From: Candidatus Yanofskybacteria bacterium
Lineage (GTDB): Bacteria; Patescibacteriota; Minisyncoccia; Minisyncoccales; UBA10102
Length of the DNA: 64,000 bases
NCBI GenBank assembly: GCA_030688685.1
Contig: JAUYJF010000006.1
Location: 120 to 64,119, forward strand
Direction of reading: 5' to 3'
The stretch's first letter is position 1. Each line of letters starts with the position of its first letter. Shown here one piece after another: positions 5,666-36,922 of the stretch. The notes under the pieces are model-generated. The model searched no databases. It was not told where the DNA came from and worked only from the letters and a program-made list of their open reading frames with translations. A program made the translations under genes and the position numbers.

Positions 5666-6193
5666 TTATCTGGAGTAATATTCTAAAATGAGAGAGATCT
5701 CAACCGACGGGGAAATCTCCTCCAATGTTGGTTCGCCTTTTATGGTTATGGACATTGCTTCAGGATCCAGGATCATCCAGGTGGGAGCTTCATGTTTCTT
5801 AAGGGCGAGTTTCACGTTTTGCATCAATATGGTTTTCTCAGATGAAGGATGCGCCTGAATCACATCCCCTTTCTGTACTTGATAAGAAGGGATGGTCAAG
5901 GGCTTTCCATTTACCAGAAAATGCCGATGGGAAACCATCTGGCGCGCTTGGTTCCGAGTCTGGGCAAATCCCGCGCGATACACAACATTATCCAAGCGCC
6001 GTTCCAGCCGCTGAAGAAAGAGCTCAGCCGCCGTTCCCCCTTTTGTAGCCAATTGCAGCGCCTCCTGCATATAGCGCTTAAACTGGCGCTCCCGTAAATT
6101 ATACTGAGAACGCAGCTCTTGCTTTTCACGCAGCTGCTTTCCGTATTCAGAGAGCTTTCCTCCTCCTCGTTTTCGTACGACTCCTTTTTGCAT
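5666..6193 (-). CDS. rpsD: 30S ribosomal protein S4
   Basis: S4 signature (LERRLDNVVYRAGFA.TR.QARQ.V.H). Confidence 0.95.
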   Translation of the reverse strand: MQKGVVRKRGGGKLSEYGKQLREKQELRSQYNLRERQFKRYMQEALQLATKGGTAAELFLQRLERRLDNVVYRAGFAQTRNQARQMVSHRHFLVNGKPLTIPSYQVQKGDVIQAHPSSEKTILMQNVKLALKKHEAPTWMILDPEAMSITIKGEPTLEEISPSVEISLILEYYSR

Positions 6194-31835: not shown

Positions 31836-31877
31836 CTTAAAAAGGCGGGGGCGCTCAAGAAATGCGCTTCCCCCGCC
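31836..31877 (-). terminator. intrinsic terminator after the zinc-ribbon gene
   Basis: GGCGGGGGCGC...GCG-CUU-CCCCCGCC is followed on the minus strand by UUUUUAA. Confidence 0.6.
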
Positions 31878-31894
31878 TTATATTGAAGAGGTTA

Positions 31895-32104
31895 TCACCC
31901 CTTTCCATATGAGGCTACCTCCAAAGTACGTAGGTTCGCCTTGAGATTCTTCTTGCAGTCCGGACACCAGGCATTGCCATCCTCCAGCCGGTGGCCTCCC
32001 ACGTCTACCGAGGTGTTCCCCTCATAGTCCGTCGTCAGTACCTCCTTGTACCTTTCTCCACATATTCTGCACTGTGTGAAGCCTTGCCACTCTGTGTTTC
32101 TCAT
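31895..32104 (-). CDS. small zinc-ribbon protein (~69 aa; CRIC...CPDC)
   Basis: The RBS AGGAGGAGTAAGGAGG precedes ATGAGATG, and the second ATG is in frame. There are two CxxC pairs. Confidence 0.5.
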   Translation of the reverse strand: MRNTEWQGFTQCRICGERYKEVLTTDYEGNTSVDVGGHRLEDGNAWCPDCKKNLKANLRTLEVASYGKG

Positions 32105-32169
32105 CTCATCCTCCTTACTCCTCCTGAACTCCCTTTCTCGCTTCGGATGCTTCTTTATACGCCGCAAAG

Positions 32170-32229
32170 AGAAAAATGCAAATATACAAATAAAGAGACG
32201 AATGAGAGGCGGGATTCTTCCCGCCTCTC
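32170..32229 (-). terminator. hairpin terminator downstream of the TauE gene, about 300 nt after its stop
   Basis: A perfect 10-bp stem GAGAGGCGGG/CCCGCCTCTC is followed on the minus strand by a T-rich tract. Confidence 0.5.
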
Positions 32230-32529
32230 TCACGCGATATGCTTGGCAATCTCTTTTGAAGGAGCGTAAAGCTCCTTACTTGGCTCCGTAGGAGAATGCC
32301 AGCAAACTCTGCCGGTTCCGTCCCGGCATACCCACAATCTCCACCTCCCCTCATAGGTAATGCCTGGATTTTTACACCGCGGGCAAAAGAGCATGAAAAT
32401 CCTTCCTTTCTGCAGAAAGGGTGCAGGAGGTTCTTGCTAGTGTATCTTCCGCAGCAGGAAAGCGTCAAGAGGAATCCTCTCGTACTTTCGGTGGATCCGG
32501 TTCCTTGTTCCGGCCAAGGATAAACTTGT

Positions 32530-33249
32530 CTAGGCGAACACGAGAAGACGAAAGCCAACAAGGAGAAGAAAAACAGCTACAAGAAGTCGGAAGTACTTCT
32601 GGGGCACCTTTTCCACAATCCCCTTTGCGAGGACAGCCCCCAGCAAAGAAGCCGGAACAAACAAGAAAAGCCCCCAGAAAAGATGGGAGGGCAGAGTCGC
32701 CCCGCCGCTTATATACGCTCCAACGCGCGTACTATCCACCGCAAAGCCAATCGCCCCGGAGGTAGCAAGATACACCGCCTTTGGTAGATCAAACAGGCTC
32801 AGGAATGCGCCCCTCACCGCTCCCCCAATTCCAAAAATACCCGCAAAGAATCCGGACAATACCCCTCCCGCAAGCGCAGTACCACTGGTTTTAGGAAGCT
32901 TGAGCCGCGGCTTTAACAAAAGAAGCCCAACATAGCCAATAAGGAAAGCACCCAGTACGCGAGAGAGCAAAATCTCTGGTACCTCAAATACAAGCTGAAC
33001 GGCAAAGAAAGTCGCCAAAACCCCTGGAGCTCCAAAGAGCATGATAAGGCGCCACCGCAATCCCTCCCGGAAAAGCGCCACTTTCCAGATATCAACTGAC
33101 CAGTGAATAATCCCCGCGAACAGCAGGGTAACAGGGAGCGGAAAGAAAAAGAGCAAAACCGGCACCATGATAGTTGAGGTGCCAAAACCGCTCACTGTTC
33201 CCACAAAGGAAGCAACCGCAACAAGCAGCGCGAGCGCGAGGGTTTCCAT
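32530..33249 (-). CDS. TauE/SafE (DUF81) family anion exporter
   Basis: Two repeated 4-TM halves with Gly-rich motifs (GFGTSTIMVP, GIFGIGGAVR). Confidence 0.8.
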   Translation of the reverse strand: METLALALLVAVASFVGTVSGFGTSTIMVPVLLFFFPLPVTLLFAGIIHWSVDIWKVALFREGLRWRLIMLFGAPGVLATFFAVQLVFEVPEILLSRVLGAFLIGYVGLLLLKPRLKLPKTSGTALAGGVLSGFFAGIFGIGGAVRGAFLSLFDLPKAVYLATSGAIGFAVDSTRVGAYISGGATLPSHLFWGLFLFVPASLLGAVLAKGIVEKVPQKYFRLLVAVFLLLVGFRLLVFA

Positions 33250-33302
33250 GAGTGCTTTATACCATCAAATACGTGAATGGGGAAAACTTAGCCGAGCTAA
33301 GG

Positions 33303-33354
33303 TGGGACTAAAAATGACCAAGTCGAGTGAGTCATTTACGGAGCGGGGCGGTTT
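33303..33354. repeat. direct repeat copy L with the near-perfect palindrome AAATGACCAAGTCGAGTGAGTCATTT
   Basis: TGGGACTAA...ATGACNNAGTCGAGTGAGTCATTTACGRRGCGGGGCGGTTT is shared with 34154-34238. It lies between the TauE start and the NYN stop. Confidence 0.6.
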
Positions 33355-33486
33355 GGGGGTTTTCCAGCCCGCGAGCAGGTCCTTTGGTTCAGGACGACTC
33401 TTGACAGCTCTTGATCCTCTTTGCTATCATTAGAGTATCACCACGAAAAAGACCCTTGCATGGATCCGTCCATACTGGGGGCTTTT

Positions 33487-33987
33487 TCATTTTAGCTCAT
33501 ACCCTACCTTATGCTTTACCTCGTTTAAATATACAATCGGAACGCCTGTTCTCTTTAATAAAACAGAACACTTGCTTGTGGGCGCGGGAGAGACGATGTC
33601 ACAATGGACCCCTTTTTCTGCCCAAAACTTTACCAATGGAGTGTAGTCGCCATCGCTTGAGACAAGCACAACAGAGGCAACGCCCTGCTCAAAGTAATCT
33701 CTTGCCGCCTGGAGCACCAAATCAGCATCACAATTTCCCTTCGCCCTTCCGTTGCCATCGTAAATAACCTCTTTAAAGACCAGCACATACCCGATGTTTT
33801 GCAGAGCGGTATAAAGATTCGCGTGTTTGGGCATCAAGCCAATGAACAAATAAGCATCCGTCGCACCGAATTTTTGACGGATCCAAGACCGGAATTTTCG
33901 ATAATCCAGCTTCCACAATGAGGACTCAACACCCTTGTGAAGGTTTGCTCCGTCTATATACGCAATATTCTTGGGGGTGGGCTGCAT
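33487..33987 (-). CDS. NYN-domain (LabA/PIN-like) putative RNase (~166 aa)
   Basis: IAYIDGANLHKG...VLVSSDGDYTPLV is the NYN signature. Start placed at ATG 33987. The ORF-track TTG start at 34086 adds an unrelated N-terminus. Confidence 0.7.
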   Translation of the reverse strand: MQPTPKNIAYIDGANLHKGVESSLWKLDYRKFRSWIRQKFGATDAYLFIGLMPKHANLYTALQNIGYVLVFKEVIYDGNGRAKGNCDADLVLQAARDYFEQGVASVVLVSSDGDYTPLVKFWAEKGVHCDIVSPAPTSKCSVLLKRTGVPIVYLNEVKHKVGYELK

Positions 33988-34153
33988 ATTTTTGGATTTT
34001 ATTGACAAACTATCTCCACCATACCCCCTTTGGAAGTGGGTTTCAATCCTTCGACTACGCTCAGGACAAACCTGAATTTGAGGCAAATTTCCACCATTTG
34101 GCGCAGGGCTGGGCTAAGCCGTACTTAGTCTAGTTCACAATATGACACTAGTC

Positions 34154-34238
34154 TGGGACTAAGCGAGGAAAACTTGTCCCGATGAAGTTTTGGGGAAATG
34201 ACTCAGTCGAGTGAGTCATTTACGAGGCGGGGCGGTTT
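34154..34238. repeat. direct repeat copy R with the perfect 26-bp palindrome AAATGACTCAGTCGAGTGAGTCATTT
   Basis: The palindrome is at 34196-34221 with 10-6-10 architecture. Copy R has a 36-nt insertion relative to copy L. It lies between the NYN gene and the divergent small gene. Confidence 0.6.
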
Positions 34239-34357
34239 AAATTAGAGGCCCGTGGATGCACAGAGGTGCTTGCGCACCGGTGCTCATTGTACTAGCATGG
34301 GGCCAGAACATTTGTGCTACTCCCGCCATTCCATCAATCGCCAAAAAAGGAGGTAGC

Positions 34358-34534
34358 ATGCCTGCACGAAAAGAGCCGCCACTGGAGTTGCTGAGCCGGG
34401 ACGAGTTGCTCGCCTATTGCCAACAACTCCGCGCAAGTTGTTCGTTTTGGCAATGGTTATTCGGTGCTACACTGTTAGCGGCGATCATCGGAGGGCCAAT
34501 CGTCAGCACCATTCTTCGGCGCGGCATTTGTTAG
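34358..34534 (+). CDS. small single-TM protein P1 (58 aa)
   Basis: A perfect AAGGAGGT is 5 nt upstream of the ATG. The C-terminal TM is LFGATLLAAIIGGPIVSTIL. It is paralogous to the convergent minus-strand small ORF. Confidence 0.5.
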   Translation: MPARKEPPLELLSRDELLAYCQQLRASCSFWQWLFGATLLAAIIGGPIVSTILRRGIC

Positions 34535-34562
34535 GACATTGCTGAATCCAAGGCAGAACCCA

Positions 34563-34596
34563 GAAGGCTACTTCACCGCAGAAGTAGCCTTTTCAA
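34563..34596 (+). terminator. hairpin terminator after P1
   Basis: GAAGGCTACTTC-accgca-GAAGTAGCCTT-TTCAAT. Confidence 0.45.
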
Positions 34597-34643
34597 TGTG
34601 GATAATTTAACTAGACTGAGTTTGATAGGATTTCCAACTCCAG

Positions 34644-34675
34644 AAAAAGACCGCCCTTTGGGGGACAGTCTTTTT
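34644..34675. terminator. bidirectional A5/T5-flanked hairpin between the convergent small genes
   Basis: AAAAAGAC-cgccctttgggggaca-GTCTTTTT. Confidence 0.5.
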
Positions 34676-34697
34676 GTCTCATTACCTCAGCTAACAG

Positions 34698-34877
34698 CTA
34701 ACCCGATAGCCGACATACGTTATACGCCACTCCGAGCACGATGATGCCCAAGATTAAAGCTACAACGGTGGCCCACCAGCCTCTTTTCTCTCGACGCAGC
34801 TCTTCGGTGAGGCGCAGGCATTCCTGTGCCAGCTGCTCTCGACTCATTGAGTTATAGTCGTTCAAGGGGCTATTCAT
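34698..34877 (-). CDS. small single-TM protein P2 (59 aa; below the ORF-track cutoff)
   Basis: My manual translation reads MNSPLNDYNSMSREQLAQECLRLTEELRREKRGWWATVVALILGIIVLGVAYNVCRLSG. A GGAGGGA RBS is about 9 nt upstream. It aligns with P1 over SR[DE][EQ]L..xC..LR...W.W plus the TM. Confidence 0.45.
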   Translation of the reverse strand: MNSPLNDYNSMSREQLAQECLRLTEELRREKRGWWATVVALILGIIVLGVAYNVCRLSG

Positions 34878-35093
34878 CTTTCCCGTCCCTCCGCCTCGTA
34901 GAATTGGGGAGAAGTGAGGGGTTTCACCTGTTCTCCCATGAGGAGGGGAAGGAGAGATGCTTTAGAGTACATCAGCATGCGGTTTTGTTCAAGGCTGAAT
35001 GGGGATAACTTAACGAAGTTAAAGCAGGATTCTGGGAAAACCAAAAACCGCCTTTCGGCGGTCTCTGATCCAGACAAGTAATGCCTGAGTTTG

Positions 35094-36688: not shown

Positions 36689-36922
36689 TTATAGGGGCAA
36701 ATCCTCAATTGTCAATTCTTCTCTGGCTCTCACAGGCTCAGGAGAAGCAGGGCGCCCCCTTTCTTCCGGAACACTTGGCAATGCCGCGGTTTTGGGCACA
36801 ACCGCTTTCTGTCCTTTGTATTCTTCAAAGGAAAGCGCGACCAGAACCGGCTTGCCGTTCTCTACGATTACGACCTTTCCTCCTTCATGTTCAATAAATT
36901 CTTTAAGCTCTTGAATATCCAT
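36689..36922 (-). CDS. Phd/YefM-like antitoxin-fold small protein (77 aa), with no toxin gene adjacent
   Basis: ELKEFIEHEGGKVVIVENGKPVLVALSFEEYK matches the YefM/Phd N-domain pattern. The C-terminal half is Pro/Glu-rich and looks disordered. It lies between fusA and tuf. Confidence 0.45.
   Translation of the reverse strand: MDIQELKEFIEHEGGKVVIVENGKPVLVALSFEEYKGQKAVVPKTAALPSVPEERGRPASPEPVRAREELTIEDLPL

Follow-up and report, generated by a model that had tools for sequence, protein, structure and literature searches.

Introduction

Proteins of the YqjD/ElaB/YgaM family (DUF883), which are about 100 aa long and occur mainly in Pseudomonadota, are all-helical and combine a cytoplasmic N-terminal part with a single transmembrane (TM) helix at the extreme C-terminus. 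Many bacteria have a single-TM SecE of about 60 aa, which consists of an amphipathic helix and one C-terminal TM segment. Phage holins carry a charged hydrophilic C-terminal domain and adjoin the endolysin in the lysis cassette. [quoted passage not shown] In the par locus of pAD1, Fst and RNA II are convergent and share a bidirectional terminator, which is the site of RNA–RNA contact, and one of the two partners is a non-coding RNA of ~40 nt. Direct repeats of par-like loci give complementarity at the 5′ ends and block the Shine–Dalgarno (SD) sequence. Type I toxins, among which Fst/Ldr is counted, are in general toxic when over-expressed and depolarise the membrane, and their mRNAs have a structured 5′ leader in which the SD sequence is sequestered.

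The stretch of DNA analysed here, 64,000 nt of contig JAUYJF010000006.1 and called the window below, belongs to a metagenome-assembled genome of Candidatus Yanofskybacteria, an uncultured groundwater bacterium. It contains two convergent open reading frames (ORFs), P1 and P2, which an earlier note had described as paralogous proteins that resemble small toxins or holin-like proteins, in a layout that suggests antisense cross-regulation. The reading preferred here, to which we give about an even chance, is that P1 and P2 are two separate convergent genes for tail-anchored mini-proteins within a variable island. If real, they would be two unannotated membrane mini-proteins in Patescibacteria, where small membrane proteins are hard to recognise.

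Predicted Structures of P1 and P2

P1 is encoded on the plus strand at 34358–34534, where an ATG at 34358 opens a frame of 58 aa plus stop (MPARKEPPLELLSRDELLAYCQQLRASCSFWQWLFGATLLAAIIGGPIVSTILRRGIC). P2 is encoded on the minus strand at 34698–34877, with the ATG at 34877 and the stop at 34698, and is 59 aa long plus stop (MNSPLNDYNSMSREQLAQECLRLTEELRREKRGWWATVVALILGIIVLGVAYNVCRLSG). Hydropathy analysis detects one hydrophobic segment in each protein, at the C-terminal end, with Kyte–Doolittle maxima over 19 residues of 1.94 for P1 and 2.41 for P2, and places the TM segments at about residues 31–53 of P1 and 34–54 of P2. In agreement with this, single-sequence AlphaFold2 models consist of one continuous helix, spanning residues 14–55 in P1 (pLDDT 71) and residues 13–58 in P2 (pLDDT 83.5). 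Both proteins are thus predicted to be polar in the N-terminal half and to end in a membrane anchor with a tail of only 5–6 residues, and the convergent pair of ~58-aa ORFs with a single C-terminal TM segment that the earlier note had described is borne out by coordinates, hydropathy and models alike. The two anchors have in common a face of small residues, A-T-[LV]-[LV]-A-x-I-x-G, and in P1 two basic residues (RR) come directly behind the TM helix. The SR[DE][EQ]L stretch of the two proteins resembles the start of the double-glycine bacteriocin leader, whose consensus is LSxxELxxIxGG; this candidate was rejected since no GG follows and no ABC transporter with a peptidase domain is among the identified neighbours.

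The similarity between P1 and P2 is marginal. BLASTP aligns them at 16.5 bits (E 0.013) with 13 identities in 38 positions and 8 gap positions. Global shuffles attain their Smith–Waterman score of 39 in 0.2% of cases, and shuffles that keep the layout of a polar N-terminal and a TM C-terminal part do so in 2.5% (P about 0.025); with the N-terminal halves alone, the proportion is 4%. In a comparison of 246 small ORFs from the window, P1 and P2 are reciprocal best matches, and the runners-up score 38, 38 and 36. The likeness is mainly generic, being made up of an S-x-x-E/Q helix cap, an interfacial Trp residue and a helix face of the form A-x3-A-x3-G, and no inverted repeats joining corresponding parts of the two genes were found. 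The proposal that P1 and P2 are paralogues is therefore not established.

The Island between rpsJ and rplC

P1 and P2 lie within a 3.2-kb hypervariable island between rpsJ, encoding S10, and rplC, encoding L3. The distance from S10 to L3 is 3236 nt here, as against 6–330 nt in most of 80 related loci. The terminator of rpsJ (35039–35070, minus strand; −26.2 kcal/mol, z −5.9) is where the variable island begins on its upstream side, and it shields P2 from transcription of str/S10. This terminator is conserved in the nearest relative, where DNA similarity stops at it and resumes inside L3, and the island of that relative carries different cargo, namely another NYN gene, MazE, PIN and a Ser hydrolase. 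The neighbouring NYN gene of the present island has 362 metagenome relatives, which are never found beside S10, TauE or L3 and never together with P1- or P2-like ORFs. Both the rpsJ–rplC junction as a cargo hotspot in this phylum and the compact NYN gene cassette, which moves between restriction–modification and other contexts, may be of more general use.

No homologue of either ORF was found in a word-indexed search of 5.8 billion proteins, and tblastn against 165 fetched loci found no relative of P1 or P2. A metagenome scan with P2 and viral scans with both ORFs found no homologue, tblastn against phages and DNA searches of phages and plasmids revealed no similarity, and PDB sequences gave no match to either protein. 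Pfam, NCBIfam, PHROGs and PADLOC contain no family that matches P1 or P2, with nothing below E 0.03 in PHROGs. An exhaustive HMMER search of 1.84 billion representatives with P2 returned only P2 itself and one repeat protein, a DUF350-like membrane protein (P0003), whose match is driven by TM segments. The two are 45% identical over 36 residues (...EIKRGN-AVALIFG-LVIGMAYV... in P0003 and EKRGWWATVVALILGIIVLGVAY in P2), and the E-value of 4.5e-5 is a sum over four repeats of one TM-rich unit in a polytopic protein of 316 aa. Since the first TM helix of the unit is missing from P2, which also has no DUF350 match in Pfam, this is treated as similarity of TM composition and not as homology.

Nor was conservation found in related genomes, an outcome that the earlier note had said would count against the ORFs. 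The power of this test is low, because the closest recorded genome is only 80% identical in S10 and 89% identical in EF-Tu and has the island replaced, so that the DNA in question is absent from it. P1 and P2 are most likely lineage-specific orphans.

Start Signals and Coding Potential

The earlier note had credited both genes with good SD sequences. This holds for P1, which is preceded by a perfect 9-mer (AAAGGAGGT, 34346–34354, plus strand) 4 nt before the ATG, and only in part for P2, where an SD-like GGAGG (34888–34892, minus strand) lies 10 nt before the ATG, a long spacing for this genome given that well-supported SD-led starts in the window have spacings of 3–8 nt. The window contains 32 copies of AAGGAGG where 7.8 would be expected, and 13 of them stand ahead of an ORF start (ORFs of 40 aa or more); the motif is a genuine start signal in this genome. 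The region upstream of P2 (34878–34960, minus strand) may form a structured leader with a folding energy of −35.6 kcal/mol (z about −2, a stability equalled by 11 of 200 shuffles), in which CAUCU..UCCU..CCCUCC could base-pair with GGAGGG..GGGA..AGAUG, a tract comprising the SD sequence and the start codon, if the start of the predicted transcript is as assumed. The P1 leader is no more structured than its shuffles (z 0.1). In a consensus promoter scan, neither gene has a passing promoter on its own strand; upstream of P2, a weak promoter-like sequence (TTGAAC-17-TACTCT, 34992–34964) falls below the threshold of the scan. A 10-nt sequence common to the upstream regions of both genes (TACGAGGCGG) is attributed to chance, as ~0.5 inverted matches are expected per 1 kb and its distances to the two starts differ.

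ORFs of this length (50–100 aa) are expected in 88–98% of random 1-kb sequences, an ORF with a TM-like segment in about 3%, and an ORF with both a TM segment and an SD sequence in 0.05–0.2%; such an ORF on each strand appeared in none of 4000 random sequences, under thresholds that were set after the ORFs had been seen. Because ORFs with a TM segment and an SD sequence are so rare in random sequence, P1 and P2 are probably genes and not chance ORFs. Within the window, 2.4% of ORFs of 45–75 aa have a hydrophobic stretch of TM grade. They include the real ATP synthase c subunit, and the others are mostly out-of-frame-looking sequences, unlike the protein-like P1 and P2.

Codon usage and annotation point the other way. 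Host-like codon usage was looked for in P1 and P2 and was not seen: in synonymous codon usage they are outscored by 99.5% of host gene segments and by ~80% of spurious ORFs, and the full codon usage of P1 is indistinguishable from that of spurious ORFs. Since the synonymous codon usage of the conserved neighbouring NYN gene is also atypical (4.6th percentile of host genes), host-like codon usage does not separate acquired genes from non-genes. The earlier note had held that one of the two ORFs escapes the ORF track; in the NCBI annotation it is both that are missing, judging from the consecutive protein accessions, which leave only two numbers, for S10 and EF-Tu, between NYN (...087) and the Phd-like protein (...090). 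P2 is called as a gene in a Logan contig (L001). The same 1-kb stretch contains three other ORFs of 55–67 aa, which have no Pfam match, so that a decayed pseudogene was rejected as an explanation. A non-coding RNA was likewise rejected, because the stretch gives nothing in Rfam at gathering or permissive thresholds and contains no tRNA or tmRNA.

Hairpins and an Inverted Motif around the ORFs

The 3′ ends of P1 and P2 had been described as facing each other across a single bidirectional A5-hairpin-T5 terminator. This hairpin, called B here (34644–34676, both strands), does exist and folds in both directions, more strongly on the minus strand (−17.2 kcal/mol, z −3.2) than on the plus strand (−13.0 kcal/mol). 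It lies 21 nt after the P2 stop, where it would end the P2 transcript, and its minus strand matches only the terminator part of the Rfam Thr_leader model. However, a second terminator-like stem-loop, hairpin A (34562–34593, plus strand; core AAGGCTACTTC / GAAGTAGCCTT, then TTTT), intervenes 27 nt after the P1 stop. Hairpin A has 13 bp, a folding energy of −19 kcal/mol (z −3.9) and a T-run on the plus strand only, and it ranks 19th of 370 hairpins adjoining a T-run. The two hairpins are 50 nt apart and do not overlap, and A is the stronger one. The AAG...CTT TT style of hairpin A matches other gene-end hairpins of the window, and both hairpins are in the style of those that end other genes of this genome. 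As there is one terminator-like hairpin for each gene, A for P1 and B for P2, the two transcripts need not overlap.

A motif of 12–13 nt (ACTNAGTCNAGT) is present in three exact copies within 500 bp and nowhere else in the 64 kb, where ~0.12 would be expected. The motif can also be written ACTYAGTCKAGT(T) or ACTYAGTCKAGTT. Copy 1 is at 34123–34135 on the plus strand (ACTTAGTCTAGTT). Copy 2 (34201–34212) is part of an operator-like 26-nt palindrome, AAATGACTCAGTC/GAGTGAGTCATTT, at 34196–34221 on both strands, 137 nt upstream of the P1 ATG. Copy 3, ACTCAGTCTAGTT on the minus strand (34609–34621), lies between hairpins A and B and is inverted relative to copy 1 with a 12/13 match, so that copies 1 and 3 bracket P1, its SD sequence and hairpin A as inverted repeats. 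One chance match apart, none of the other fetched loci contains the motif. An integron cassette with attC was considered and rejected, since the heptamers near hairpin A that resemble core sites are, by eye, in the wrong order and imperfect. The locally unique inverted motif around P1 may be of general use.

Alternative Readings of the Locus

One or both ORFs may be untranslated by-products of a stretch of non-coding island DNA made up of regulatory sites, decayed cargo and terminators belonging to neighbouring or ancient transcripts. The lack of conservation anywhere, the absence from the NCBI annotation, codon usage like that of spurious ORFs, the ease with which random DNA yields ORFs of this length and the presence of three more in the same stretch are all consistent with this reading, and the repeated motif shows a non-coding function of this DNA. 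Against it stands the occurrence, twice and on opposite strands, of an ATG, an SD sequence, an amphipathic helix, a TM anchor and a terminator, a combination never seen in the 4000 random sequences; moreover, the P1 SD sequence is a perfect 9-mer in a genome where this motif marks real starts, and the two products look like proteins. On balance we regard non-translation as rather unlikely. A different possibility concerns P1 by itself, and it can coexist with the preferred reading: the inverted repeats would delimit a discrete segment of 499 bp (34123–34621) that is a small non-autonomous mobile element or is invertible by a recombinase, or else the three copies would serve as operators through which a DNA-binding protein regulates P1 together with the divergent NYN gene. 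The number and local confinement of the copies, the inverted 12/13 pair enclosing P1 with its SD sequence and hairpin A, and the palindrome around copy 2 speak for this possibility. So does the orientation of P1, the only candidate plus-strand gene in a block of ~15.5–41.7 kb in which the recognisable genes are all on the minus strand; inversion would bring the two ORFs into tandem, the arrangement that a duplication would also give. The flanks show no target-site duplication, neither the window nor the 165 other loci contain a second copy, no recombinase or transposase was identified nearby, and an independent Logan contig, though probably from the same sample, has the same orientation. We consider this possibility improbable. 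Extending it further, P1 and P2 could be a diverged duplicate pair of tail-anchored, membrane-active mini-proteins that act together, as effector and partner or as a hetero-oligomer formed through the A-x3-A-x3-G face, with the expression or orientation of P1 switched through the three motif copies by inversion or by a DNA-binding protein. This would be an undescribed small-protein module in the rpsJ–rplC island of Patescibacteria, and we consider it highly unlikely.

The idea of small membrane-damaging toxins, type I- or holin-like, whose mRNAs would act as mutual antisense RNAs upon read-through of the shared bidirectional terminator draws on the size and hydrophobicity of P1 and P2, which fit small membrane toxins, on the bidirectional nature of hairpin B, the kind of element through which the par RNAs meet, on the predicted ability of the P2 leader to sequester its SD sequence and AUG (z about −2), and on the toxin–antitoxin pair MazE–PIN in the island of the nearest relative. 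However, hairpin A lies between P1 and hairpin B, and a P1 transcript would have to read through one terminator before arriving at B, and through another before entering P2. The predicted energy of the P1/P2 mRNA duplex is within the controls, 26% of shuffles pairing as well, when measured by duplexfold, a blunt instrument on sequences longer than 300 nt; the leader of P1 shows no structure beyond that of its shuffles. In addition, the order of domains is the opposite of the Fst/Ldr signature, no toxin, holin or defence family matches either protein, and there is neither an endolysin or phage gene nearby nor any similarity to phages. Neither the antisense cross-regulation nor the toxin or holin identity proposed in the earlier note is supported by these results, and we judge their combination to be very improbable.

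The reading of P1 and P2 as two separate convergent mini-genes in the rpsJ–rplC island accommodates these observations as follows. Each gene would produce a protein of ~58 aa that folds into one long helix, in which the first ~30 residues, polar or amphipathic, are expected to be cytoplasmic, and the last ~25 residues would insert into the membrane as an anchor with a tail of 5–6 residues, giving a C-tail-anchored membrane mini-protein. The face of small residues on the anchor may let the helices pack on each other or on a partner protein. Transcription of P1 would end at hairpin A and that of P2 at hairpin B. Both genes, whose codon usage is foreign to the host, are most likely accessory cargo of recent acquisition, as are the island's other genes. 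Taken alone, the two amount to an ordinary case of orphan genes to which no function is assignable. If they are real, the case shows that standard annotation skips genes of less than 60 aa, and that intrinsic signals such as an SD sequence, a TM anchor and a terminator can support small genes that have no homologues.

Comparison with Known Systems

The locus resembles par in that small hydrophobic peptides are encoded in convergent units with a bidirectional intrinsic terminator, hairpin B, between them. In contrast to par, both partners are ORFs here and hairpin A separates the units. Direct repeats of the par type were not found, as the only two-copy matches, of 11–13 nt, are at chance level, and 5′ complementarity does not exceed chance. 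P1 and P2 also differ from Fst/Ldr toxins in having the polar or charged part first and the TM segment last. Like holins they are small membrane proteins, but they end shortly after the TM segment, in place of a charged C-terminal domain, and their neighbours are S10, NYN and TauE, with no endolysin.

SecE has the same size and the same two-part helix layout as P1 and P2. Neither protein, however, matches SecE in Pfam or NCBIfam, the KVxWP-type motif is absent from both, the genes are not located by nusG or rplK, and two dissimilar copies are present in a variable island. DUF883 proteins are larger than the 58 and 59 aa of P1 and P2, which have no DUF883 match in Pfam at E up to 1 and show no evidence of ribosome binding, their ribosomal neighbours reflecting the insertion site of the island. 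Nevertheless, YqjD, ElaB and YgaM are the best architectural analogues of P1 and P2, in architecture only and not by homology: they share the all-helical fold with the cytoplasmic N-terminal part and the TM helix at the extreme C-terminus, a Trp residue close to the interface of the membrane, a TM segment with small or Gly residues, which have been linked to dimerisation, and, in the case of P1, the RR pair after the TM helix.

Reading frames, start signals and architecture of P1 and P2

The P1 reading frame extends on the plus strand from the ATG at 34358 to the end of its stop codon at 34534 (58 aa), and the P2 frame extends on the minus strand from the ATG at 34877 to the stop end at 34698 (59 aa), in agreement with the coordinates, strands and lengths in the earlier note. 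P1 is the C-terminal end of a longer 92-aa frame opened by the ATG at 34256, and its 58-aa start is marked by a perfect SD sequence, AAAGGAGGT (34346–34354, plus strand), 4 nt 5' of the ATG at 34358. An SD-like GGAGG (34892–34888, minus strand) lies 10 nt 5' of the P2 ATG. AAGGAGG is present 32 times in the window compared with an expected 7.8, 13 of these 32 copies are followed after 3–11 nt by a start codon opening an ORF of at least 40 aa, and the spacer of most well-supported AAGGAGG-led starts in the window is 3–8 nt. Therefore, the ribosome-binding site of P1 is excellent and that of P2 is usable but atypical in its 10-nt spacing.

Many other genes of the window lack an SD sequence and have instead a TGnTATAAT-like box 6–10 nt before the ATG (for example, the minus-strand starts at 6193, 9796, 11689, 20569, 33249 and 50168), suggesting that their mRNAs are leaderless, and a second gene set carries the canonical AAGGAGG. 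For some window genes (e.g. 21325 and 57282), translation probably begins at the SD-led internal ATG and not at the start of the longest ORF.

In both proteins the first half is polar and the C-terminal end carries a single, strongly hydrophobic segment. On the Kyte–Doolittle scale, the highest 19-residue value reaches 1.94 in P1 and 2.41 in P2, in agreement with the C-terminal TM segment previously assigned to each. AlphaFold2 run on single sequences predicts one continuous helix in each protein, spanning residues 14–55 of P1 (mean pLDDT 71) and 13–58 of P2 (mean pLDDT 83.5). [quoted passage not shown] The pattern A-T-[LV]-[LV]-A-x-I-x-G is common to both anchors, and a small-residue face of this type can mediate packing between helices.

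Similarity between P1 and P2

BLASTP aligns P1 with P2 at 16.5 bits (E 0.013 for a single comparison; 13/38 identities with 8 gap positions). Global shuffles attain the Smith–Waterman score of 39 in 0.2% of cases, and shuffles in which the polar and hydrophobic halves are kept apart do so in 2.5%; when the N-terminal halves are compared alone, 4% of shuffles score as well. The two proteins are each other's best match among the 246 ORFs of 45–75 aa in the window, where other ORFs reach 38, 38 and 36. The features common to both, namely a Ser helix cap, an interface Trp and the small-residue face, are generic for their architecture, and an inverted-repeat search finds no repeat linking corresponding parts of the two genes. 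The evidence for paralogy is thus weak: a duplication is possible, but the description of the pair as paralogous is unproven.

The rpsJ–rplC island

The window belongs to a MAG contig of 65,435 nt (NCBI, Candidatus Yanofskybacteria bacterium). The minus-strand gene order is S12, S7, EF-G, a 77-aa Phd-like ORF, EF-Tu, S10, a strong terminator (35039–35070) and P2, followed by P1 on the opposite strand and then by NYN, TauE, a 69-aa zinc-ribbon-like ORF, a strong hairpin (31842–31879), L3 and L4. The S10–L3 gap is 3236 nt here, compared with 6–330 nt in most of 80 related loci; a minority of these loci carry other insertions of 0.7–4.8 kb, one of which is a type I restriction-modification system enclosing an NYN gene. 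Unrelated insertions of this size are found at the junction in other Patescibacteria (comparison loci L009, L017, L025, L032, L047, L048 and L055). The nearest genome on record (loci L163/L164) has the same flanks, with identities of 80% for S10, 89% for EF-Tu and 78% for EF-G. Its DNA similarity to the window ends right after the S10 terminator (35040) and resumes within L3 (31655), and its S10–L3 interval shows no sign of either P1 or P2 and is occupied by another NYN gene, MazE, PIN and a serine hydrolase. Different cargo between shared breakpoints indicates that P1 and P2 are cargo of a fast-turnover island of 3.2 kb (31859–35040), and the rpsJ–rplC junction looks like a cargo hotspot within the ribosomal gene cluster.

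The NYN gene (33416–33987, minus strand, 166 aa) and about 70 nt past its stop are 70–81% identical at the DNA level to sequences on dozens of contigs from groundwater metagenomes. This homology stops exactly at the ATG and the neighbours differ each time (L082, L083, L055 and about 75 other loci), and this segment behaves like a compact mobile cassette. The NYN gene comes after a 752-aa ATPase/helicase-like ORF in L082, and in L055 an NYN gene lies between hsdM and hsdS. In L083 it comes after an N6-methylase of 653 aa, and the final ~20 residues of this methylase recur past NYN. A short minus-strand frame (33389–33490) overlaps the NYN stop and coincides with a hairpin (33449–33484); its peptide is conserved (MKKPPVWTDPCKGLFRGDTLMIA compared with MKKPPAWTDPYKGLFRGDTIIIA in L083, 2682–2906), and it may represent either a very small coupled ORF or an RNA or DNA element that is conserved in the cassette.

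The 77-aa ORF in the fusA–tuf interval (36689–36922, minus strand; NCBI hypothetical MDP2641090.1) has weak, sub-cut-off similarity to the Phd/YefM antitoxin (Pfam E 3e-4). Since counterparts with 34–44% identity occupy the same position in several Parcubacteria (L004, L022, L029, L060, L080 and L163–L166), it is a conserved str operon resident in the group. The 69-aa ORF (31898–32104, minus strand) has two CxxC pairs with weak Pfam zinc-finger matches only, AAGGAGG 5 nt 5' of its ATG and the strong 31842–31879 hairpin on its 3' side; it is probably unannotated because its exact sequence is absent from the protein collection. Three Saccharibacteria loci encode a conserved membrane protein of ~90 aa directly 5' of rplC (L009 14630–14896, L048 11150–11431 and L057 11092–11364), which has the pattern ...YFLKLL.YL..G..W.K...HF..DRK.EYAV.L.A..VG... 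and is unrelated to P1 and P2. The rpsJ–rplC gap of a Nomurabacteria MAG (L017, 3346–4518) holds an ORF of 390 aa that carries a YVDD motif and probably encodes a reverse transcriptase of retron or group II intron-like type.

P1 is the sole candidate plus-strand gene in about 26 kb of minus-strand genes. The motif ACTYAGTCKAGT(T) has exactly three copies in the 64-kb window compared with about 0.12 expected, all within 500 bp: 34123–34135 (plus), 34201–34212 (plus, inside a 26-nt palindrome at 34196–34221) and 34621–34609 (minus, between hairpins A and B). The first and third copies are inverted, agree at 12 of 13 positions and flank P1 with its SD sequence and hairpin A. The other fetched loci lack the motif, one chance match aside. 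Its copies may serve as a set of operators, mark the two ends of a small mobile element or form the arms of a segment that can be inverted; the flanks show no target-site duplication, and no recombinase is identified nearby.

Transcription termination and coding status

The bidirectional A5-hairpin-T5 element described earlier exists as hairpin B (34644–34676), 21 nt from the P2 stop, but it is not alone in the spacer. Hairpin A (34562–34593), which has a T-run on the plus strand only, starts 27 nt past the P1 stop, and its 11-bp perfect core extends to 13 bp (−19 kcal/mol, z −3.9). Hairpin B folds more strongly on the minus strand (−17.2 kcal/mol, z −3.2) than on the plus strand (−13.0 kcal/mol). 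Both have the AAG-stem-CTT-TT form of many gene-end hairpins in the window and rank 19th (A) and 38th (B) among 370 T-run-adjacent hairpins; in a permissive Rfam search, hairpin B matches only the terminator portion of a leader model. In the simplest reading, the P1 transcript ends at hairpin A and the P2 transcript at hairpin B, with 50 nt between them. An upstream CCUCC tract in the P2 leader can pair with the SD sequence and AUG (z about −2), and the P1 leader structure is unremarkable (z 0.1). Under the earlier note's model of membrane toxins with antisense cross-regulation, mutual antisense would require read-through of one terminator from P2 into P1 and of two from P1 into P2. With separate terminators, and with complementarity between the predicted mRNAs not above that of shuffled sequences (26% of shuffles pair equally well), this model is very improbable.

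That one or both frames are untranslated is unlikely but carries appreciable weight. An ATG ORF of 50–100 aa arises in 88–98% of random 1007-nt sequences of matching composition and the same stretch holds three more ORFs of 55–67 aa, so ORF length alone is uninformative. A TM-grade hydrophobic segment is rarer: about 3% of random sequences contain one, as do 2.4% of the small ORFs of the window. One of these small ORFs encodes the genuine ATP synthase c subunit, and the others mostly resemble out-of-frame noise. A TM segment combined with an SD sequence is found in 0.05–0.2% of random sequences, and none of 4000 has such an ORF on both strands, figures that are indicative only because the thresholds were set after the fact. 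P1 and P2 each have a correctly oriented terminator, and nothing else accounts for the 1-kb gap, since it matches no Rfam family, contains neither a tRNA nor a tmRNA, and its other ORFs have no Pfam match. Codon usage counts against P1 and P2 as genes: by full codon log-odds P1 scores as a spurious ORF and P2 ranks at the 12th percentile among segments of real genes, and by synonymous usage both fall below 99.5% of real segments. However, the neighbouring NYN gene, which is certainly real, reaches only the 4.6th percentile, so the synonymous measure separates host-adapted from other sequences rather than genes from non-genes. The NCBI protein accessions (TauE ...086, NYN ...087 and the 77-aa hypothetical ...090) leave room for S10 and EF-Tu only, and from this run we infer that 34087–35093 has no annotated protein.

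Among 5.8 billion proteins, the only matches to P1 and P2 are identical sequences from one 1127-nt Logan contig with 100% identity to window 33950–35076. When P2 is compared exhaustively with 1.84 billion representatives, the sole further match is a protein of 316 aa with four DUF350-like repeats, rejected as a relative because its score stems from four copies of a TM-rich unit. No relatives emerge from a metagenome scan with P2, from scans of viral sequences, or from the phage and plasmid sets, the PDB and four family libraries. This absence weighs little either way, since the collections contain no closer relative. On balance, the most likely explanation, at about even odds, is that P1 and P2 are separate genes specific to this lineage, each encoding a tail-anchored membrane mini-protein and both carried in a variable island. 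The original observation is largely correct, apart from the number of hairpins and the paralogy.

Known systems with similar features

Convergent transcription and a bidirectional terminator are features that P1 and P2 share with par/Fst, a type I toxin-antitoxin locus. However, one par partner is a non-coding RNA, the complementarity on which par/Fst depends is not present in P1 and P2, and the order of the Fst signature (TM helix, Trp, charged C-terminus) is reversed. A holin, SecE and a double-glycine bacteriocin precursor are rejected on motif, family-model and context grounds. Although half the size and without a DUF883 match, P1 and P2 have their closest analogues by architecture in C-tail-anchored bacterial proteins such as YqjD and ElaB, and they would belong to a familiar kind, the orphan small membrane proteins.
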